Origin: Candidatus Poseidoniales archaeon
Lineage (GTDB): Archaea > Thermoplasmatota > Poseidoniia > MGIII > CG-Epi1
DNA: 64,000 nucleotides
Assembly (NCBI GenBank): GCA_045567915.1
Contig: JBJLCA010000039.1
Coordinates: 1,879-65,878, forward strand
Direction of reading: 5' to 3'
The translations under genes were made by a program, and so were the position numbers. Shown piece after piece: positions 1,576 to 63,521 of this stretch. The notes below the pieces were generated by a model, which had not been told where the DNA came from, did no database searches, and saw only the letters and a program-made list of their open reading frames with translations. Position 1 is the first letter of the stretch, and each line of letters starts with the position of its first letter.

Positions 1576-3501
1576 ATGAGTAGACCTATTTGGGTGCCTT
1601 CAAATGAAAGAATTAATAATTCTTTGATGCATAAATTTATGCAAAAGGGCCCTAAAGTTTTTGATTCATATTTTGAGTTACACAAGTGGTCTGTAGAGCA
1701 TATGGAAAGTTTTTGGTCTCAGTTTTGGGAATTTTCCAATATCAAGTATTCAAAGAATTACGATTCAATATTAGAGAATCCAGTGATGCCAGGTGCTAAG
1801 TGGTTTTCAGGTTCTGAGATTAATTATGCTGAAAATTTACTGAATGGAGATCCAAATCAAGTGGCAATCATCTCCTTAGGAGAAGATAAACCTGCAAAAT
1901 CAATAACATTTCAAGAACTTAACCAGAAGGTATCTTCTGTTCAGAAAGGTTTAGTTAGTCTAGGTGTAAAGAAGGATACAATTGTAGCAGGTTTTGTTCC
2001 TAATTGTGTCGAAACCGTAATTATTATGCTTGCAGTTTCTTCACTTGGAGGGATATGGACTTCCTGTTCACCAGATTTTGGGGCAAAGGGCGTGGTTGAT
2101 AGGTTTGGACAAGTCAATCCTCATATCCTAATTACTTCAAATGGATACAGTTATAATGGAAAAATATTCCAATTAGAAGAAAAAGTCAATGGAGTTCTAG
2201 AAGTAATTGATAGTATTAAACATATCATTGAAATAGAATACATTGATATTCAATCTGAATTTAATCATGATTCAGTTATCTCTTTTCGCAAATTATTAGA
2301 TAATGAAGCCGCACCTCCAAAGTTTGAGCAATTGCCTTTTGATCATCCACTATACATAATGTATTCATCAGGGACTACGGGACCTCCAAAGTCGATTGTA
2401 CATGGTGCAGGAGGCACATTAATTCAACATATGAAGGAACATCAACTTCACTGTGATGTTCAAGCAGGTAAATCTAAAATGTTTTGGTTTACTACATGTG
2501 GATGGATGATGTGGAATTGGTTAGTTTCAGGTCTTTCTTCAGGAGCTACCATAGTTTTGTATGATGGAAGTCCAAGTTATCCCAATCTTGGGAAGCTATG
2601 GAAGATAATAGATGATGTTGGAATCACTCATTTCGGAACGAGTCCTAAATTTTTGAGTGCGTGTGATTCAGCTAAAATCTTACCAAATGAGTTCTGCACT
2701 TTGGATAGCTTACAAGCAATATTGTCTACAGGTTCTCCTTTAGTTGAAGAGCAGTTTGATTGGATTTACGATCATGTCAAATCAGATATCCAACTTTCAT
2801 CGATATCTGGTGGTACAGACATAATAGGTTGCTTTTTGGCAGGTTCACCAACACTTCCCGTTTTCCGTGGAGAGCTACAATGTCCACAGTTAGGCATGGC
2901 AGTTCAATCTTGGAATGATGAAGGTGTAGCATTAATTGGAGAAAGTGGAGAGTTAGTATGTACCAAACCGTTCCCATCAATGCCTATTGGATTTTGGAAT
3001 GATCAAAATGGTTCGAATTATAATTCAGCATACTTTGAAGAATTCAAGGGAGTTTGGACACACGGTGATTATTTAGAGATTACAGAAAATGGCGGTGCAA
3101 TAATATATGGAAGAAGCGATACTACGTTAAATCCAGGTGGAGTAAGAATTGGAACTGCTGAGATATATCGCTCAATTGAGAGCTTTGAGGAAATCATTGA
3201 TTCTGTAGTCATAGGAAAACCAGAGGGTTCAGATGTATCTATTGTCCTATGCTTAAAATTGATAGAAGGTATGAATATTACAAAAGTTTTGGAGGATGAA
3301 ATAAAACTTCAGATACGGAATTCAACAAGCCCTCGTCATGTTCCAAATTTTGTATTCCAAGTAGAAGATATTCCATATACTATTAGCGGAAAGAAAGTTG
3401 AAAAAGCAGTTCTGCATTCAATTTTAGGCAAGAAGATTAAAAATAAAGATGCTTTGGCAAATCCGGAATCACTGGCAGAATATGCTAATTTACCATTCTA
3501 A
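1576..3501 (+). CDS. acetoacetyl-CoA synthetase (acetoacetate--CoA ligase), AMP-forming
   Basis: N-terminus PIWVPSNERINNSLMHKF is typical of acetoacetyl-CoA synthetases. It has the adenylate-forming motif YSSGTTGPPKSIVHG and C-terminal GKKVE. Length 641 aa. Confidence 0.75.
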   Translation: MSRPIWVPSNERINNSLMHKFMQKGPKVFDSYFELHKWSVEHMESFWSQFWEFSNIKYSKNYDSILENPVMPGAKWFSGSEINYAENLLNGDPNQVAIISLGEDKPAKSITFQELNQKVSSVQKGLVSLGVKKDTIVAGFVPNCVETVIIMLAVSSLGGIWTSCSPDFGAKGVVDRFGQVNPHILITSNGYSYNGKIFQLEEKVNGVLEVIDSIKHIIEIEYIDIQSEFNHDSVISFRKLLDNEAAPPKFEQLPFDHPLYIMYSSGTTGPPKSIVHGAGGTLIQHMKEHQLHCDVQAGKSKMFWFTTCGWMMWNWLVSGLSSGATIVLYDGSPSYPNLGKLWKIIDDVGITHFGTSPKFLSACDSAKILPNEFCTLDSLQAILSTGSPLVEEQFDWIYDHVKSDIQLSSISGGTDIIGCFLAGSPTLPVFRGELQCPQLGMAVQSWNDEGVALIGESGELVCTKPFPSMPIGFWNDQNGSNYNSAYFEEFKGVWTHGDYLEITENGGAIIYGRSDTTLNPGGVRIGTAEIYRSIESFEEIIDSVVIGKPEGSDVSIVLCLKLIEGMNITKVLEDEIKLQIRNSTSPRHVPNFVFQVEDIPYTISGKKVEKAVLHSILGKKIKNKDALANPESLAEYANLPF

Positions 3502-3510
3502 AGGCTTTAA

Positions 3511-6500
3511 ATGGAACACTTCTACCAAAATATGAAATCCCTATTTGTCTTATTACTTTTTGTCACATCAATCGTGGCAAATCACGTAGACATAGAGGCA
3601 AAGCATTCAGGTGAAACTGAGATTAAAATTGAATACATAGACTGTGGCCCTTCCTCATTTTCTGACAGTGTCAAAAGTTCTTTTTTAAAGAAGATTAATA
3701 GTAATTATTTGGATTCAGAATTATACAAGCTGACAGACTGGATTGTGTTAATTAATGATAATCATTGTCATCATGATTTAGATTTTTTATTTAACTTATC
3801 TAATCTGGAAGCATATCATTCAATAAGAATTATTGATGGGGGCTGGAGTATAAGCTTTCAGTCTGGAGACATTGCTTATTCCGTATTAGATAACTGGAGA
3901 AATACCGGAAAAGTTTGGGGTTTTTATCCAGAAATTAGCATAAGAAATGAATTGCGTTATGAGCCTAATGATCCATATTATGTTTCAGGAGATCAATGGT
4001 ATTTGAACAATTATGGTCAAAATGGCGGAAATTCGGGAATTGACATCAGTCCCCAAAGTGCTTGGGAAAACTATGACGGAGCAGGCATACGTATTGGAGT
4101 AGTTGATGACGGTATAGATTATGATAATCCAGATTTGTCTGCTAATTTTGCGAGTTCTTTGAGTTATGATTATTGTGATGACGATGGTGATGTTATGCCT
4201 TCAGATTCAGACAATGACGGTGAAATTGACTGGCATGGTACTGCGGTTGCTGGCATAGTCTCCGCAAAAGGTAACAATAGTATAGGGATTTCAGGCGTTT
4301 CCTATAATTCAGATTTGGTAGGGATAAGACTGGTTGCAGATTCTTGTAATTCATCATTTACCTTAGATGAATCTGAGGCATATGCGCTTAATCATAGATT
4401 AGATGTTGTAGACATTTATGCAAATAGTTGGGGTCCACCAGATGACGGTAATCTTTTAGGTGAAATAGGTCCTTTAGCATTGTCAGCCTTAGAGGAAGGA
4501 GTCTCTGAAGGTCGCGACGGGTTAGGTTCCATTTATGTTTGGGCTGCAGGCAACGGTCACCAAAATGGAGATAATTCTAATAAAGATGCTTATGCAAACA
4601 GTAGATATACTGTAGCTGTAGGAGCAATAAATTGGAAAGGCGAACGTACAGAGTATTCAGAATCAGGATCAAATTTAATGCTTGTAGCACCTTCACATAA
4701 CAATAGTGAATGGGTTGATCCAGCTATATTTTCAACAGATATTTCAGGATCTGATGGTCACACTAATACAAGTTATTTAGATGATATGGGAGGTACTTCA
4801 GCATCTACACCGATGGTTGCAGGAGTAATTGCATTAATGCTAGAAGCAAATCCTGATTTGACATGGCGTGACGTCCAACATATCCTAGTAAGAACATCTA
4901 AAATGGTAGACAGTTCTAATGAAGGTTGGTTTAAGACATATGAAGGACGCGATTATAATCACGCATATGGATATGGTCTAGTCGATGCTAGCAGCGCAGT
5001 TAACCTTGCTAGAAATTGGGAAAACGTAACTGGAGAAATGAATTTAACAGAAGTTACTGCTAATACAGGAAAAATCATGGTGAATGAAATTATAAGTGAT
5101 GCCAATGAGTTGGGAGTAACTTCGGAATTCTTTGTTAAGGAAAGCATAGATATAGAAACGATTGAGATAAAAGTCAATATTTCACATTCTTGGAGGGGAG
5201 ATTTGAATTTATTTTTAGAATCTCCTAATGGTATTGTATCTGAGTTAGTTCGAGAAAGTAATGATGGTAATGATAATTATCGAGATTGGACTTTTTCATC
5301 AGTAGTTCATTGGGATGAAAATTCGTTTGGACTTTGGAAATTAAAAGCTAATGATACTGTGTTTGGAGGCGATACAGGAGTTTGGGTTGACTGGAATATG
5401 ACTATTTACGGTCATCCTGCAGCTGATCGCGATTTTGACGGACTTACTGATTTTGCAGAATCTAAGCTTGGAACTAAACTCTCAGATCCAGACGATGATA
5501 ATGACGGTTTATTAGATGGTGAAGAATATTATGGATGGTTAGATTTGCAAGGTAATTTCCATTTGACCGATCTTAAAGATCAAGATTCCGACGATGATGG
5601 AGTTACGGATTGGTATGAAGGCCGCGAGGATAACTTAACACGTTCACTTACCGATCCAAATGATAATGATACCGATGATGATGGAATACTTGACGGCTGT
5701 GAGATATATGGTTTAGATGATTGTGATAATTATGTAACAGATCCGTTAGAAGTAGATACTGATGGGGATGGAATCAGTGATTATGATGAAATTTTCGCTA
5801 ATTTACTTGAGCCTTCAAGGCTTAGAAGTGATCCAACTAAAATTGATTCGGATAATGACGGAATGCCAGATCCTTACGAATTAGATAATGGCTTTGGTCC
5901 TAAAGTAACTGCCGATGGCTTTCAAGATTCAGATTGTGATGGAGTGCAGGTTCAGTTTCAAGGTCTTGATTGTATTTTATTGAATGAGAATTCAATAAGG
6001 TATACTAATTACCAAGAATATTTAATGGGTACTAATCCAAATGACCCAGATACAGATTTAGATGGCCTACCTGATGGTTGGGAATATTTTTCTGGATTAA
6101 ATCCTTTAGTTGATGATTCTCATCTTGATTTCGATAATGATACGATTTCGAATATTTATGAGTTTAACAATTATTTGGTAGAGTCTGATATTTTTTCAAA
6201 AATGAGTTCAGGGTTGCGAGCCTATTGGCAATTTGAGTCTTCGTTCCCAACTGACGCAATAGGTTCAGGTCCGAGTTCACATTTTGCCTCGATGGTTAAT
6301 GGTGCAACTAAAATTCCTGCAAAACTGGCTAATGGTGTATATTGCGATGGTTCATCATCTCATCTAACTATTGATTCAATTAAGAATACGAAATTTACAG
6401 AATATACGGTACAGACTTGGGTTAAGTTGACCAATTATACAAACTTTGGGACTATAGTTGGGACGGCTACAGATGGTAGAACATGGTTAGGCATAGACTC

Positions 6501-7626
6501 TGAAGGTTTCATTCAATTTAGAGTATTCGCAGGTAATACCCTTTATTCAACACCTCTAGAAAATGATACGAGAGCAGCACTTGATGTCTGGTATCATGTT
6601 GCAGCAACTTATAGTGAAACTGGTAATTCATTAAGACTTTATGTTAATGGTACATTGGCTACAAATGCCACGATATCATCCTCGGATTCAATAAAAACAG
6701 CAGGAAGTAAAAATTACATTTGTAGAGGCCAAAGTGGAGCTTATCTTAACGGAACGGTAGATCATATTGCTATATGGGAAAGGGCATTTACAGAAGACGA
6801 AATAAGGTATTTTTATGAAAGACCATTAGCAATAGATAATTATTTCAATTTAAGGGTAGATGATGGAATAAGATACACGAATGCTAATTCTACAGATACT
6901 GATGAAGATGGTTTATCAGATGGGGAAGAATTCTATTTCGGTTTAGATGGATATTTAACAGATCCTACTAATAATGACACCGATGGAGATGGGTTGAACG
7001 ATTATCAGGAATGGTACTTCTTTGGAACGGACCCTACAACAAATGACACAGACTCCGATAATTTCACGGATGACATTGATATTTTCCCGCTAGATTCAAC
7101 AGAATGGATTGATACTGATGGAGATGGAGTTGGAGATAATTCAGATTATTTCCCACTTGATTTTAATGAAAGCAAAGACTCAGATTTAGATGGGTTGGGA
7201 GACAAACTTGAAATATTGATGCAAACTAATCCGTTTTCAAATGATACAGACGGAGATGGCAGTATTGATTCAATAGATAAATTTCCTTTAAATGACACTG
7301 AGTACTTAGATTCGGACAACGATGGTTTTGGAGACAATATTGATAAGTGTCCTGAAAATCCTAATGGTTATTTAGATTCAGACGATGATGGTTATTGTGA
7401 TAATGTGGATGCATTTCCATTAAATCCAAATGAATATTTGGATTCTGATAGTGATGGTTACGGCGACAATTCAGACAAGTATCCTAACGATTCTTCAAAG
7501 TCTAGTGATCCTCTTCAGAAAGTCGATAAGAATGATCCATTAAGTGGGGGAACCTTAGATTTGGCTTTACCTTATATTGTACTAATAGGTACACTTTATT
7601 TTATTTTCAAATTTTTCAGAAAATAA
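3511..7626 (+). CDS. secreted subtilisin/kexin-like S8 serine protease with P-domain, thrombospondin type-3 Ca-binding repeats, LamG/ConA-like domain and C-terminal TM anchor
   Basis: Signal-like N-terminus (MKSLFVLLLFVTSIVA). S8 catalytic triad contexts are VVDDGID (Asp), DWHGTAVAGIV (His) and GTSASTPMVAGVIAL (Ser). P-domain pattern HSWRGDLNLFLESPNGIVSELV...WTFSSVVHWDENSFGLWKLKA. Many DxDxDGxxDxxE repeats. LamG-like WYHVAATYSETGNSLRLYVNG. C-terminal hydrophobic LALPYIVLIGTLYFIF then KFFRK. Confidence 0.8.
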   Translation: MEHFYQNMKSLFVLLLFVTSIVANHVDIEAKHSGETEIKIEYIDCGPSSFSDSVKSSFLKKINSNYLDSELYKLTDWIVLINDNHCHHDLDFLFNLSNLEAYHSIRIIDGGWSISFQSGDIAYSVLDNWRNTGKVWGFYPEISIRNELRYEPNDPYYVSGDQWYLNNYGQNGGNSGIDISPQSAWENYDGAGIRIGVVDDGIDYDNPDLSANFASSLSYDYCDDDGDVMPSDSDNDGEIDWHGTAVAGIVSAKGNNSIGISGVSYNSDLVGIRLVADSCNSSFTLDESEAYALNHRLDVVDIYANSWGPPDDGNLLGEIGPLALSALEEGVSEGRDGLGSIYVWAAGNGHQNGDNSNKDAYANSRYTVAVGAINWKGERTEYSESGSNLMLVAPSHNNSEWVDPAIFSTDISGSDGHTNTSYLDDMGGTSASTPMVAGVIALMLEANPDLTWRDVQHILVRTSKMVDSSNEGWFKTYEGRDYNHAYGYGLVDASSAVNLARNWENVTGEMNLTEVTANTGKIMVNEIISDANELGVTSEFFVKESIDIETIEIKVNISHSWRGDLNLFLESPNGIVSELVRESNDGNDNYRDWTFSSVVHWDENSFGLWKLKANDTVFGGDTGVWVDWNMTIYGHPAADRDFDGLTDFAESKLGTKLSDPDDDNDGLLDGEEYYGWLDLQGNFHLTDLKDQDSDDDGVTDWYEGREDNLTRSLTDPNDNDTDDDGILDGCEIYGLDDCDNYVTDPLEVDTDGDGISDYDEIFANLLEPSRLRSDPTKIDSDNDGMPDPYELDNGFGPKVTADGFQDSDCDGVQVQFQGLDCILLNENSIRYTNYQEYLMGTNPNDPDTDLDGLPDGWEYFSGLNPLVDDSHLDFDNDTISNIYEFNNYLVESDIFSKMSSGLRAYWQFESSFPTDAIGSGPSSHFASMVNGATKIPAKLANGVYCDGSSSHLTIDSIKNTKFTEYTVQTWVKLTNYTNFGTIVGTATDGRTWLGIDSEGFIQFRVFAGNTLYSTPLENDTRAALDVWYHVAATYSETGNSLRLYVNGTLATNATISSSDSIKTAGSKNYICRGQSGAYLNGTVDHIAIWERAFTEDEIRYFYERPLAIDNYFNLRVDDGIRYTNANSTDTDEDGLSDGEEFYFGLDGYLTDPTNNDTDGDGLNDYQEWYFFGTDPTTNDTDSDNFTDDIDIFPLDSTEWIDTDGDGVGDNSDYFPLDFNESKDSDLDGLGDKLEILMQTNPFSNDTDGDGSIDSIDKFPLNDTEYLDSDNDGFGDNIDKCPENPNGYLDSDDDGYCDNVDAFPLNPNEYLDSDSDGYGDNSDKYPNDSSKSSDPLQKVDKNDPLSGGTLDLALPYIVLIGTLYFIFKFFRK

Positions 7627-58339: not shown

Positions 58340-60721
58340 TTACTCTTTATTTCGGATGCGATTTCCAACGATTAGCATAACAGATGCAATTGGCATAAGA
58401 AGTGTTGAAAACTCAGGTATTGCTGTTGCAGTAGTAACATCATCAGCACCATTTCCTCCATTAGGATTGTTCACTGTAATCCATTGATTCCCGAAAGCAT
58501 CAGCTCCTACATCCGTTGAAATTGCAGAAAATAAGTCACCTGAAACATAAGTAAAACCAAAATCGGCCTTGTCACATGCTATTTCGACACCACTAAATCC
58601 AACCTGGCCCCCGTCGTTAACTCTAACGTGTGATGATCCAGCAAAATTACTAGGCGTCCATGCAGTGTCTACAGAGCTCCATTCTGTCACATACCCCCAG
58701 TTAGCAGAGCCAACTCTTTTTGTGTGACATACAGCTTCATATGTCTGCCCAGTGTTACTAACATCGTCTATTAAAACACCAAAAGTAGCAGTTGATAAAT
58801 CTGCGTTAGCTTCTGTTCCAATTTGGAAAAATAAGTGGTCAGAATCTACGGCCCATTTTACTGTCAAAATTTCTAAATCTGAATCGACTCCATCATCTCC
58901 GTCATTTACTAAAGTGTTCCAGGTGGACGGCCAAGTGAATGAACTTTTAGCCCCATCTTCACCTTCAGTAGGCAGGGTAACTTTGTTGTAAATTTCAGCT
59001 TCAACTTCATCTACTTTATTACTCCATGATTTTATGTAAATGTAATAATTACCAGTAGCTCCGAATATTTCAATTTCCTTGTCATTGTTTGCAGATTCTG
59101 TATCTATTCCTTCGTCCCAAGCTGGAGTTTCTAAGAAGGGAAGCCAAGACTTCATCACACTTGAATCAATAATGCCATAATTTCCTACAATTTCTATCAT
59201 TTTTTCAGCACCAATTCCACCAACAATAAAACCAGTTTCAGCGTTATAGTCGGTATCTATCATGACAAAAATGTGGTCTTTATTTGACAATATTGGTTTA
59301 TTAAATTTGATTTCTTCAAGTCCGCCTTCCAATGTAACGTCAAATCCGCCTTCATTTCCTTTACTCTGGGCTGAATTTGATGTAAATGAGGTTCCATTTA
59401 GTATATTTCCTTCAGTGTTGATGTAATAGAATGTTTCGTCAGTTTTATCAGTAAAATTAGCAAACCTAAGTATGTCTATGTTATCTTCAATATTATTGTC
59501 GTTAGAATCTGCTTTATACTGGTCTACCGAGTTCCAGTCATTGAATTCACCATCAATAGTAATTCCATCTAAATCACCTTTACGGTAAGAATTTGAAACA
59601 TCTCTTCTAGACTTTACGTTTTCATTGTAATCGTACTCATTTCTAGATAAATCAATAACATTGGTTTTATCCATATTTCCTGATGAATCTGAAGCCGTAA
59701 TTAGATATCTCAATCCTTCGCCGGCATTAATTCCGACATCGAAATTTGCTATTTGAAGTTCAAGGGCAGTTGATATTCCCTTGGCGCTTGTTGAATTTGC
59801 TTCAATATTTGTTAAGCTAAAGAATCCATTCCAATCGCTATTGTCTCTGGAATCATCAAAGCTGTACAGCATTGCAGACGAAATAGTACCTGTACTCTCA
59901 CCATAGATTTCTACCATGTGATCTGCACCCAGTCCAGGGTAGAAATATCCACTATTTTGGTTATTGTCGCTGTCAATAAGAATTCTAACTGTAGTTCCAT
60001 CCGAAGATGTGAACATAGGTTCTTTAGTTTTCACCAAAAATGAGGTGTATACATTATCAATTGTAATTCCAGTTTCTATTATGTCAATGTTACCATTAAT
60101 TGAATCATCAGTTCCATCAAGTACAGTTTCGGTACCTGCCCAATCTTCAAAGCTGCCATCAATACTAACAGTTCCCTTTGATTCACCATCTTCCAGCATG
60201 TAATAAATACAACCGCCGCCGATTAGTAATGATAAAAATATAGCAACAGCAGAAGTTCTTGCAATATTACTTGCTCCCTCTAGTTCTATGTGAGAGTATC
60301 CTCCTAAGCCTCCCTTACTCTGTAACCCACTTCCATTAATTAATCCATTACCGTTAGTTAATCCGTTACCATTAGTTAATCCGTTACCGTTAGTTAATCC
60401 ATTACCATTAGTTAGTCCGTTACCGTTAGTTAATCCATTACCATTGGTTAATCCATTACCATTGGTTAATCCGTTTCCGTTGGTTAATCCATTACCGTTA
60501 GTTAGTCCGTTACCGTTAGTTAGTCCGTTACCGTTAGTTAACCCATTACCATTGGTTAATCCGTTTCCGTTGGTTAATCCATTACCGTTAGTTAATCCAT
60601 TACCGTTAGTTAATCCGTTTCCGTTAGTTAGTCCGTTACCGTTAGTTAATCCGTTACCGTTTGTCAATCCTTTACCATGCTTCAGATTTTCGTCTTTATT
60701 TACGATTTTCTTGTCGGACAT
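58340..60721 (-). CDS. large surface protein: N-terminal (GLTNGN)n hexapeptide repeat, TM/signal-anchor, ~600-aa S/T/N/D-rich ectodomain, C-terminal PEF-CTERM sorting signal
   Basis: ATG at 60721. Residues 18-~135 are GLTNGN repeats. Hydrophobic IARTSAVAIFLSLLIGGGCIYYML follows. Ectodomain has many N-x-S/T sequons. C-terminus ...TATAIPEFSTLLMPIASVMLIVGNRIRNKE has PEF, a TM and a basic tail. Confidence 0.6.
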   Translation of the reverse strand: MSDKKIVNKDENLKHGKGLTNGNGLTNGNGLTNGNGLTNGNGLTNGNGLTNGNGLTNGNGLTNGNGLTNGNGLTNGNGLTNGNGLTNGNGLTNGNGLTNGNGLTNGNGLTNGNGLTNGNGLTNGNGLINGSGLQSKGGLGGYSHIELEGASNIARTSAVAIFLSLLIGGGCIYYMLEDGESKGTVSIDGSFEDWAGTETVLDGTDDSINGNIDIIETGITIDNVYTSFLVKTKEPMFTSSDGTTVRILIDSDNNQNSGYFYPGLGADHMVEIYGESTGTISSAMLYSFDDSRDNSDWNGFFSLTNIEANSTSAKGISTALELQIANFDVGINAGEGLRYLITASDSSGNMDKTNVIDLSRNEYDYNENVKSRRDVSNSYRKGDLDGITIDGEFNDWNSVDQYKADSNDNNIEDNIDILRFANFTDKTDETFYYINTEGNILNGTSFTSNSAQSKGNEGGFDVTLEGGLEEIKFNKPILSNKDHIFVMIDTDYNAETGFIVGGIGAEKMIEIVGNYGIIDSSVMKSWLPFLETPAWDEGIDTESANNDKEIEIFGATGNYYIYIKSWSNKVDEVEAEIYNKVTLPTEGEDGAKSSFTWPSTWNTLVNDGDDGVDSDLEILTVKWAVDSDHLFFQIGTEANADLSTATFGVLIDDVSNTGQTYEAVCHTKRVGSANWGYVTEWSSVDTAWTPSNFAGSSHVRVNDGGQVGFSGVEIACDKADFGFTYVSGDLFSAISTDVGADAFGNQWITVNNPNGGNGADDVTTATAIPEFSTLLMPIASVMLIVGNRIRNKE
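60333..60670. repeat. about 19 tandem copies of an 18-bp unit (coding-strand consensus ggtaacggattaactaac), in-frame within the CDS above
   Basis: Visible directly on the + strand as repeated gttagttaatccgttacc with synonymous variants (att/gtt, aat/agt/aac, ccg/cca). Confidence 0.85.
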
Positions 60722-60770
60722 GCTTTCCTTTCGTAGGTAGACCTTATTTAAAATTAACCTTTGTTTTATA

Positions 60771-60847
60771 TGGCGGGCACGGAGGGATTTGAACCCCCGA
60801 CCTGCTGCTTAGGAGGCAGCCGCCATTCCTGGCTAGGCCACGTGCCC
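60771..60847 (-). tRNA. tRNA-Arg (anticodon CCT)
   Basis: Reverse complement GGGCACGTGGCCTAGCCAGGAATGGCGGCTGCCTCCTAAGCAGCAGGTCGGGGGTTCAAATCCCTCCGTGCCCGCCA. Anticodon loop CTCCTAA. CCA encoded. Confidence 0.85.
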
Positions 60848-60853
60848 TAAAAG

Positions 60854-61237
60854 TTATGTTTTATTTGGATATTTTTCTTTTTTCATAGTCTCGTCAACTT
60901 TTTTCTCTTCATAAAATTTGCCGAGTGTAGGTGATTCCACTTGTTTCAATTTACCAATCATCTTAGAGCTTTCTAGCATTTGAGGTATAGGTCTATCCTT
61001 CAACATTTCTAAATGTTTAGGTTTTATTTCATTATCAATATAGTTATTTCTATCTATGTCAGGAAGATTAATTTTTTCTACTAAATTGCTAGGGAATTTA
61101 CCTAGCTCAAAGGCTTCAATATTTGTTAATACTTTTCCATCTTTGACTGATGTAATACTTTTTTCATCAGGTAAAGGGTCATTGTCTATGGCACTTTTTT
61201 TTATAAATTTATTCGCTTTATGTTTGTTAAATTCCAT
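60854..61237 (-). CDS. hypothetical Lys-rich protein
   Basis: 127-aa ORF with no recognisable motif. Lies between tRNA-Arg and meaB. Confidence 0.35.
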   Translation of the reverse strand: MEFNKHKANKFIKKSAIDNDPLPDEKSITSVKDGKVLTNIEAFELGKFPSNLVEKINLPDIDRNNYIDNEIKPKHLEMLKDRPIPQMLESSKMIGKLKQVESPTLGKFYEEKKVDETMKKEKYPNKT

Positions 61238-62617: not shown

Positions 62618-63232
62618 TTAACTTTTCTTACCTTTGACCCCTAATTCAGCACTTCTTTTTTTGGTCTTCTTAAATTCATTTTTTAAATCAGCTAATTTGT
62701 CCTTTACATCTTTGCTTTTTGAAGGTTGGTTTTCAGTTACAGCCATAATTGCCTTCGGAGAAACATTCTCTTTTTCAAAAGTTTCGCTTTCTTTAGCTAT
62801 AGCAATCATTTCTTTACTGTCATTTTCATCTTCCTGCTCCTCTCTATCCCATTCTTCTTCATTAATTTGAACCTCGCTTTTTAACTCTGTAGAATTTCTA
62901 ACACCAATAAAAAATGAACCCCAAATTAGTGCAGCTACTATTGCTAAAATTATGGGTTCAGCTATTCCAATTTTAAGAGATGGTCCTAAAGATAGTGATA
63001 AGATTAGATAGAGACTGAATACTAAACCGAGACTACACCCACCTCCCACAGTTATGATAAATGTTGAATGCCAATCTTTAGGTAATTCATTTGCTCCAGA
63101 TCTCCCAGCTAAAAATGGGATTATTATTAGTGAAAGAGGTACCCCTATGGGTAAAAAAAATAAAAATATTAATCCAAAGCCCATTGTTTTGACAGCAGAG
63201 TTTCGGGCTGAGTAGTAGTTTTCTAGAGTCAT
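62618..63232 (-). CDS. hypothetical membrane protein with acidic then K-rich C-terminal tail
   Basis: ~4 TM helices, then EEEWDREEQEDEND... and KKTKKRS. Start reassigned to the ATG at 63232 because the upstream part of the track ORF is tRNA-Phe read in a protein frame. Confidence 0.4.
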   Translation of the reverse strand: MTLENYYSARNSAVKTMGFGLIFLFFLPIGVPLSLIIIPFLAGRSGANELPKDWHSTFIITVGGGCSLGLVFSLYLILSLSLGPSLKIGIAEPIILAIVAALIWGSFFIGVRNSTELKSEVQINEEEWDREEQEDENDSKEMIAIAKESETFEKENVSPKAIMAVTENQPSKSKDVKDKLADLKNEFKKTKKRSAELGVKGKKS

Positions 63233-63246
63233 ATGGCGAATCAGGT

Positions 63247-63322
63247 TGGTGCCGCCGGCCGGGATCGAACCGGCGACCTCGGGATCTTCAGTCCCGCGCT
63301 CTCCCAACTGAGCTACAGCGGC
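63247..63322 (-). tRNA. tRNA-Phe (anticodon GAA)
   Basis: Reverse complement GCCGCTGTAGCTCAGTTGGGAGAGCGCGGGACTGAAGATCCCGAGGTCGCCGGTTCGATCCCGGCCGGCGGCACCA. Anticodon loop CTGAAGA. CCA encoded. Confidence 0.85.
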
Positions 63323-63521
63323 TGAGTGTTTCATTAAGAGCCCCCATAAATGCTTCACCGTAGTAGAATAAGCTTTTATTCACCCTCTTTACACTATACA
63401 TGTGGTGATAAGTTTTGCCTAAATTTACCGGAAAAGAATCTGCATTTGAAGGAAACTGCTATTTTTGTGAGAAAGTTCTAGTTGTTCCGACAGGGCCCGG
63501 TTGGAATTCCACTAGGATTAT

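Follow-up and report, generated by a model that had tools for sequence, protein, structure and literature searches.

A length-variable Asn-Gly hexapeptide array upstream of the signal anchor marks a family of Thermoplasmatota surface proteins

What is a nearly invariant hexapeptide, repeated head to tail, doing in front of the membrane anchor of an archaeal surface protein? The question is raised by a 64,000-nucleotide stretch of contig JBJLCA010000039.1 (assembly GCA_045567915.1, Candidatus Poseidoniales archaeon; hereafter ‘the window’), in which the N-terminal part of a 793-residue open reading frame (ORF) on the minus strand is built from repeats of Gly-Leu-Thr-Asn-Gly-Asn (GLTNGN). We find that the array is translated, differs in length between related genomes, and is a local, very regular form of the motif G-[L/R/F/M]-[T/V/I]-N-G, which marks a large unannotated family in Thermoplasmatota. 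A length-varying tandem peptide repeat is an ordinary kind of feature, yet no earlier description of this module was found, and it stands out for how strictly it is conserved, for its predicted placement beside the membrane on the cytoplasmic side and for how widely it occurs in Thermoplasmatota.

With Tandem Repeats Finder (TRF), one strong array stands out, at 60336..60676, with a period of 18 and 18.9 copies (87% matches, no indels, score 472). The remaining tandem repeats across the window score merely 50–57, and no further copies of the array were found within it. When read in the frame of the protein, the array occupies 60329..60670 on the minus strand (residues 18–131) and consists of 19 units of 18 bp. 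Eighteen of these encode exactly GLTNGN (residues 18–125, 60670..60347), the nineteenth encodes GLINGS (60346..60329), and the degenerate segments GLQSKG and GLGGYS follow. The array contains 37 Asn-Gly dipeptides. The plus-strand string quoted in the initial annotation, gttagttaatccgttacc, is the reverse complement of GGTAACGGATTAACTAAC, the same unit in a shifted phase. The description given there, of about 19 in-frame tandem 18-bp units on the minus strand from residue 18 of the ORF, agrees with both the TRF output and the table of units in coordinates and content. The units had also been called perfect, but their DNA is only 87% alike, with 12 distinct 18-mers among the 19.

The differences between the DNA units bear directly on translation. 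The 18 exact units depart from their consensus at 28 points, of eight distinct variant types, and every one of these changes is synonymous; the synonymous share of possible single changes is 13 of 54 (24%), and the chance of the all-synonymous pattern is about 1e-5. Among units pooled from relatives, 350 of 452 are exactly GLTNGN, written by 126 different 18-mers in which every synonymous codon is used. The codon sets are lineage-specific among related loci, other lineages encoding the hexapeptide as, for example, GGT CTT ACC AAC GGA AAC, GGT CTG ACT AAC GGC AAT or with GGG CTG ACG. In the first 200 codons of the window gene, in-frame ATG, GTG or TTG triplets are found at codon 1 (ATG, 60721), codon 19 (TTG, inside unit 1) and codon 175 (ATG, at the end of the transmembrane (TM) helix). 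Because no start lies between unit 1 and the end of the helix, a product that keeps this export helix must contain the array. The start-codon argument of the initial annotation, that the sole ATG before the helix precedes the repeats, therefore holds, the next ATG being codon 175. Together, the synonymous-only variation, the different codons of different lineages and the absence of an alternative start before the helix indicate that the array is translated in frame, as had been predicted, and that the peptide is under strong purifying selection. Coding on the plus strand, where a shadow ORF spans 60444..60740 (VNPLPL...), was rejected, as the synonymous variants of the minus strand alter its residues. 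An N-glycosylation sequon was rejected on inspection, GLTNGN containing no N-x-S/T. The stretch from Lys17 to Lys136 (119 residues) has no Lys or Arg and is therefore invisible to standard tryptic proteomics.

Could the array or its copy number nevertheless be a product of assembly, or could the true start lie downstream and leave the repeat untranslated? The array is 342 bp long and its longest internal exact repeat is 52 bp, so that short reads cannot span it unambiguously. The expectation that short-read assemblies would have trouble here is borne out by about 16 related contigs whose ends fall inside the array or a few codons from it and by one scaffold with a 100-N gap inside the array, and several orthologues have been truncated by gene callers (P0001 and P0005). 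The truncated calls, however, are accounted for by contig ends and the N gap. Dozens of independent assemblies have the same array in the same position, among them several contigs in which it is internal and a metagenome-assembled genome (MAG; L018) whose name suggests long-read sequencing. The variation is synonymous only, and a downstream start would lose the TM helix. We consider an artefactual or untranslated array very improbable.

The number of units differs among relatives. Direct orthologues with complete N-termini, which have the common linker GLQSxGGLGGYSHIELEGxSN, carry 21, 20, 17, 11, 10, 8 and 7 units, versus 19 in the window, and paralogues carry 25 (L018) and at least 33. Every complete relative is in frame, over a range of 5 to at least 33 units. 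Each array has its own DNA unit variants and local runs of identical units (RRRR, DDD, VVV), and the edge units are conserved, with GLKDGN first and GLING[SN] last. These three properties argue for internal tandem duplication and loss: the arrays gain and lose whole 18-bp units by local tandem duplication, through slippage or unequal recombination, while selection keeps all residues of the hexapeptide. One paralogue (L044, Ga0315338_1000095, 2740..3200) has a doubled leader and array, MTSN-(GLTxGN)12-SKTLSLSPTHLPFMASN-(GLTxGN)10, which suggests that the entire N-terminal module was duplicated as a segment.

The initial annotation had proposed that the array could be phase-variable or length-variable. 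Variation in length is supported by the different unit numbers of related genomes, all of them differences between lineages, and phase variation is not supported. A contingency switch, in which slipped-strand mispairing would turn the surface protein on and off, is brought to mind by tandem repeats in the 5′ portion of the gene for this protein, with a copy number that varies among relatives. Gain or loss of units keeps the frame, however, because the unit is 18 nt, a multiple of three; TRF found no indels, the array lies within the ORF and outside the promoter, and the frame is kept in all complete relatives. The array is therefore length-variable without on/off phase variation, and we regard a switch of this kind as scarcely credible.

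How widely is the repeat shared? A contig search with the single protein recovered no relative, and relatives were recovered by an alignment-based contig scan. When 1.84 billion representatives were searched exhaustively with HMMER, the family comprised 927 clusters at E<=1e-3 and 470 at the stricter E<=1e-10. Two tandem ‘IDGxFxDW’ domains straight after a TM helix are shared by over 100 further proteins from Thermoplasmatota, and in a local phmmer search with residues 181–793 as the query, nearly all of the 120 homologues matched at both 185–355 and 380–550. These homologues carry a run of G-[L/R/F/M]-[T/V/I]-N-G motifs upstream of the TM helix. Membership was assessed by a run of G-[LRFMI]-[TVI]-N-G ending approximately 12–80 residues before the first TM helix, with no earlier TM helix, and by two tandem ‘IDGxFxDW ... 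TGY..GAD..E.YG ... DWNGF’ domains straight after that helix.

The arrangement of these elements is highly consistent. A TM helix comes after the run in 96 of 97 members, with a median of 22.5 residues between the two, and in 95 of 97 no TM helix lies ahead of the run. The linker between the run and the helix is rich in Arg and Lys, and the C-terminal tail is basic. Among members of at least 600 residues, 149 of 185 have a run of four or more motifs (median 11, maximum 32), and P[EG][FY] occurs near the end of 125 of the 142 long members that have a C-terminal TM helix. The position of the array ahead of the signal anchor had been considered unusual; a G-x-x-N-G run some 20 residues before the TM helix is instead the rule in this family, as seen in the same 149 of 185 members. 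The predicted hallmark layout thus comprises an optional cytoplasmic region, the motif run, a basic linker of ~20 residues, the TM helix, two CBM9/DOMON-like domains, a variable ectodomain and a PEF-CTERM-like anchor. The window protein conforms to this layout, with the run at residues 18–131, the TM helix at 156–176 and two tandem IDGxFxDW domains after the helix. The family is large (hundreds of clusters at 50% identity) and is described by no domain library.

Among the 149 members, the region that precedes the run is 60 residues or fewer in 63, 61–250 residues in 37 and more than 250 residues in 49. A Pfam scan of nine long upstream regions found HhH, DZR/zinc-ribbon and/or TPR domains, or a KaiC-like ATPase (P0159), in eight; the ninth (P0251) gave one weak TPR_14 match only. 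The motif run therefore links the TM helix to a cytoplasmic part that ranges from almost nothing, in the window protein, to HhH, zinc-ribbon and TPR domains or a KaiC-like ATPase. The window protein is a minimal member, its cytoplasmic part being essentially the repeat alone. The identity of the upstream modules, which are of typically cytoplasmic kinds, the predicted two-helix topology and the basic flanks all place the array on the cytoplasmic face of the membrane, where it is predicted to form a juxtamembrane connector upstream of the basic linker and the signal anchor.

The largest members have an unusual architecture, in which DNA-binding-type domains are fused to a surface adhesin. Eight proteins of 1600–2900 residues (P0159, P0168, P0181, P0200, P0209, P0212, P0241 and P0256) combine a cytoplasmic HhH, double zinc-ribbon and TPR region, or a KaiC-like ATPase, with extracellular FG-GAP, DUF11 and CBM-type domains located beyond the NG repeat and the TM helix. 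A separate paralogue subfamily (L013, L015, L037, L038, L043 and L046) has a conserved N-terminal domain of 55–80 residues (RDYWLQFHRQKKFxLPEELEQxSGKSLEEMGL...) before the array, for which no Pfam match was found.

The proximity of the run to the TM helix could also be explained if the repeat extended the n-region of the signal anchor and acted as an export or topogenic leader, one that slows or routes the insertion of PEF-CTERM cargo and is perhaps removed later. The run is always immediately upstream of the helix that drives export of the large ectodomain, it co-occurs with the PEF-CTERM-like end, the helix contains a conserved glycine triplet, and in many members, the window protein among them, the cytoplasmic part amounts to little beyond the repeat (63 of 149 have 60 or fewer residues before it). 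Large bacterial surface proteins offer parallels in the ESPR (autotransporters), YSIRK-G/S and KxYKxGKxW (serine-rich repeat adhesins) regions, each a single short motif within a signal peptide that is cleaved. The archaeal proteins resemble these in having an N-terminal extension before the hydrophobic export helix of a very large surface protein and glycines in the hydrophobic core. They differ in that the archaeal repeat is a long tandem array, often located behind folded cytoplasmic domains, and none of the ESPR, YSIRK or KxYKxGKxW models matched the full protein or its N-terminal 111 residues, even at E<=10. A third of the members have large folded regions upstream, including the KaiC-like ATPase and the HhH/zinc-ribbon/TPR modules, which are implausible as cleaved leaders. 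In addition, the residue following the glycine triplet is Cys, Ala or Thr and the helix continues beyond it, with no clear signal-peptidase or lipobox site. A leader function is for these reasons quite unlikely.

What might a cytoplasmic tail of this kind do? The reading that we prefer, and hold with roughly even confidence, is that of a translated, cytoplasmic, length-variable family tail that acts as a docking or spacer element. The tail would be a flexible, turn-rich and multivalent juxtamembrane element, whose many identical short motifs may provide docking or clustering sites for a cytoplasmic partner or for each other, and the copy number would set the reach and avidity of the tail. A functional analogy is provided by the C-terminal domain (CTD) of RNA polymerase II, a heptad array (YSPTSPS)n in which a near-invariant short peptide, present in a lineage-dependent copy number, suits multivalent docking. 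Like the CTD, the archaeal tail is a tandem array of a near-invariant short peptide with lineage-varying copy number and predicted disorder; in sequence, organism and cellular context the two are unrelated. By this analogy, the logic of the tail would resemble the heptad array more than it resembles a folded domain.

Several points weigh against this reading. The proposed docking and avidity role is inferred by analogy. The motif runs and TM helices of family members were called by simple regular-expression and hydropathy heuristics, and the count of 19 units in the window is that of the assembly. The invariance of all six residues exceeds expectation for a mere flexible linker and would also suit a regular fold. 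AlphaFold2 (AF2) run without an alignment gives a solenoid-like structure in two of five models, with a predicted local distance difference test score (pLDDT) of 63–68, the other three being unstructured. With the alignment, residues 1–150 are modeled as coil without secondary structure at a pLDDT of 33–41, and this low score may be due only to the alignment, which is gapped and shallow across the array.

These structural points define an alternative in which the hexapeptide array folds as a rigid β-solenoid, either a left-handed β-helix-like rod in which each coil takes three hexads or a more tightly wound form. The resulting cytoplasmic stalk would owe its length to the copy number and might stack side by side with neighboring tails. 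The repeat shares its six-residue period, its single aliphatic residue per hexad and its Asn/Gly-rich turn positions with the hexapeptide left-handed β-helix (PF00132, Hexapep) and with other β-solenoids (pentapeptide repeats, bactofilin and insect antifreeze proteins), and each position is invariant across lineages. In the best single-sequence AF2 model, a β bridge is formed at every third residue, and the top-ranked Foldseek neighbors of the repeat are all solenoids: pentapeptide repeat protein 6fls, pectin lyase, Tenebrio antifreeze protein and bactofilin. None of these neighbors is significant, however, as Foldseek gave no match below E 0.5, and both the alignment-based model and the majority of the single-sequence models are unstructured. 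The Pfam Hexapep and Pentapeptide models are unmatched, with no family at E<=1. The unit L-T-N-G-N-G departs from the classical consensus [LIV]-[GAED]-X2-[STAV]-X in having Thr at i+1 and Asn at i+4. Because the spacing between motifs is irregular in distant family members (4, 6 or 2 residues), one fixed solenoid geometry fits the family poorly. Known left-handed β-helix domains are also enzyme domains, whereas the window repeat is a juxtamembrane tail. We lean towards a disordered, turn-rich, multivalent motif array, and regard the solenoid as unlikely.

Within the docking interpretation, a more specific proposal is that the [L/R][T/V]NG run serves Thermoplasmatota as a cytoplasmic ‘address’ or docking code specific to the lineage. 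Through such a code, PEF-CTERM surface proteins, along with any fused HhH/zinc-ribbon/TPR or KaiC-like modules, would be coupled to a cytoplasmic partner or to each other, and copy number would tune the avidity. We offer this version tentatively and consider it rather unlikely. If the repeat were a docking or sorting code, it would indicate a new link between the surface and the cytoplasm in archaea. Asn-Gly is the most deamidation-prone sequence, and a more speculative idea is that the ~37 Asn-Gly dipeptides might serve as a deamidation timer that marks protein age.

The remainder of the protein supports its description as a bitopic or double-anchored surface protein, predicted from sequence, of a marine group III-like Thermoplasmatota archaeon. 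The complete ORF (793 residues) occupies 58340..60721 on the minus strand, with the stop codon at 58340–58342. It begins with a Lys-rich leader, MSDKKIVNKDENLKHGK (residues 1–17, 60671..60721), and the equivalent 11-residue leaders that precede the arrays of orthologues are MSGKKILEADD, MSEKKILKFDD and MSDKKILKDDD. Residues 132–155 (GLQSKGGLGGYSHIELEGASNIAR, 60257..60328), directly behind the array, comprise degenerate remnants of the repeat and a linker whose motif G(L/V/I)GGYSxIEL is kept in orthologues and paralogues alike. The single N-terminal TM helix or signal anchor, TSAVAIFLSLLIGGGCIYYML, spans residues 156–176 (60194..60256) according to the orthologue alignment and an AF2 helix at 152–176. 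The helix contains GGG(C/A/T) near its middle (residues 168–171, 60209..60220), which is kept across orthologues and many paralogues. A lipobox or signal-peptidase site at GGGC was considered and rejected, as orthologues have GGGA or GGGT and the helix runs on past the motif.

The ectodomain (residues ~185–765, 58427..60169) consists of three β-sandwich domains. The first two (~185–355 and 380–550) are tandem copies of the pattern ‘IDGxFxDW ... DSDxxxxTGY ... GAD..E.YG ... DWNGF’ and have a β-sandwich fold of the CBM9/DOMON-like type. This comparison, made with the CBM9 of Thermotoga maritima Xyn10A (PDB 1i82) and with glucodextranase (1ulv), concerns the ectodomain only, and Pfam CBM9 does not match the window protein. 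In the AF2 model built on an alignment of 51 sequences (mean pLDDT 72.5), three β-sandwich domains are confident and helices are placed at 152–176 and 772–792. The placement of the array N-terminal to the signal anchor of a large surface protein stands as first annotated; that helix is the only signal anchor, and the protein has three β-sandwich domains and a PEF-CTERM-like end.

The C-terminal helix belongs to a PEF-CTERM-like sorting signal, IPEFSTLLMPIASVMLIVGNRIRNKE (residues 768–793, 58343..58420), which is invariant among orthologues. TIGR03024 (arch_PEF_CTERM) matches this C-terminus with 16 bits (E 0.011) and so falls short of the curated cut-off, which is 23. The window protein resembles PEF-CTERM cargo of archaeosortase C (TIGR03024, IPR017474) in its C-terminal P-E-F motif, hydrophobic helix and basic tail and in being a secreted multi-domain surface protein. 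It differs in its hidden Markov model score (16 versus 23 bits) and in the absence of an archaeosortase from the window, where no ~300-residue ORF with 7–8 TM helices was found and the multi-TM ORFs matched other NCBIfam families. To our knowledge, the NG-repeat tail is absent from published descriptions of the PEF-CTERM class. TIGR03024 (25 positions) matches the C-terminal signal only, and the report that archaeosortase C recognizes PEF-CTERM mentions no N-terminal NG-repeat tail (PMC5244752).

The repeat itself is not represented in domain libraries, in agreement with the initial annotation, which recognized no GLTNGN-repeat family. Pfam and NCBIfam searches with the full protein, the N-terminal 111 residues and the C-terminal 34 residues found no family covering the repeat; the weak matches to ser_rich_anae_1, Cyano_gly_rpt and VlpA_Nterm are meaningless. 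A homologue search with the N-terminal region alone returned mainly fragments of the same family, together with chance low-complexity look-alikes in lobster and lichen fungi. No match to the family profile was found in a PDB sequence search. Within the literature that could be searched, the motif strings occurred in no relevant context, and no paper was found on archaeosortase together with marine group II.

Marine group II and III archaea are uncultured and Thermoplasmatota are abundant, so that their surface biology is known almost solely from sequence. In this setting, the family is characterized by a nearly invariant Asn-Gly-rich repeat predicted on the cytoplasmic side of the anchor in surface proteins of sugar-binding type. 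The array systematically breaks short-read assemblies and truncates gene calls, so that many MAGs carry these proteins with wrong annotations.

The 5′ end of the gene is bounded by a tRNA-Arg(CCT) gene directly upstream (60771..60847, minus strand; ARAGORN and Rfam), from which it is separated by only 49 bp of intergenic DNA. This interval contains a TATA-box-like sequence, TTTAAATA (60745..60752, minus strand), centered ~27 nt upstream of the ATG. The spacing matches general archaeal promoter architecture and suggests, by analogy, a leaderless or very short-leader mRNA starting at the ATG at 60721. The synteny with tRNA-Arg is retained in one orthologue (L022), in which the upstream translation reads through the same tRNA, and CDC48 and tRNA-Arg synteny is preserved in orthologues. 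The neighboring genes are housekeeping genes that encode CDC48, an H+-pyrophosphatase, MeaB and a B12-binding subunit.

Named homologues are assigned to ‘uncultured marine group II/III euryarchaeote’ and to Thermoplasmatota MAGs, and orthologous loci were found in marine group III single-amplified genomes and MAGs. An exact-match look-up of the window protein found no identical record. One metagenome contig (L065, k127_562508 of SRR3993157) has a CDC48 identical to that of the window and the H+-pyrophosphatase in the same order, and its source is probably the same population. There the surface-protein gene breaks off at approximately residue 246, the contig stopping before the array, and the collections gave no second assembly of this strain that includes the array.

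Three further observations concern other genes of the window. A 127-residue ORF just upstream of the tRNA-Arg (60854..61237, minus strand) has no Pfam or NCBIfam match. The listed 246-residue ORF at 62618..63358 (minus strand) overlaps tRNA-Phe(GAA) (63247..63322, minus strand); its GTG start is spurious because the ORF runs through the tRNA, and the true product is a small protein with three TM helices that begins downstream of tRNA-Phe(GAA). At the opposite end of the window, 3511..7626 (plus strand) encodes a predicted surface subtilase of 1371 residues with Peptidase_S8, proprotein-convertase P and Laminin_G_3 domains, thrombospondin-type-3-like DxDxDG repeats and hydrophobic helices at both ends.

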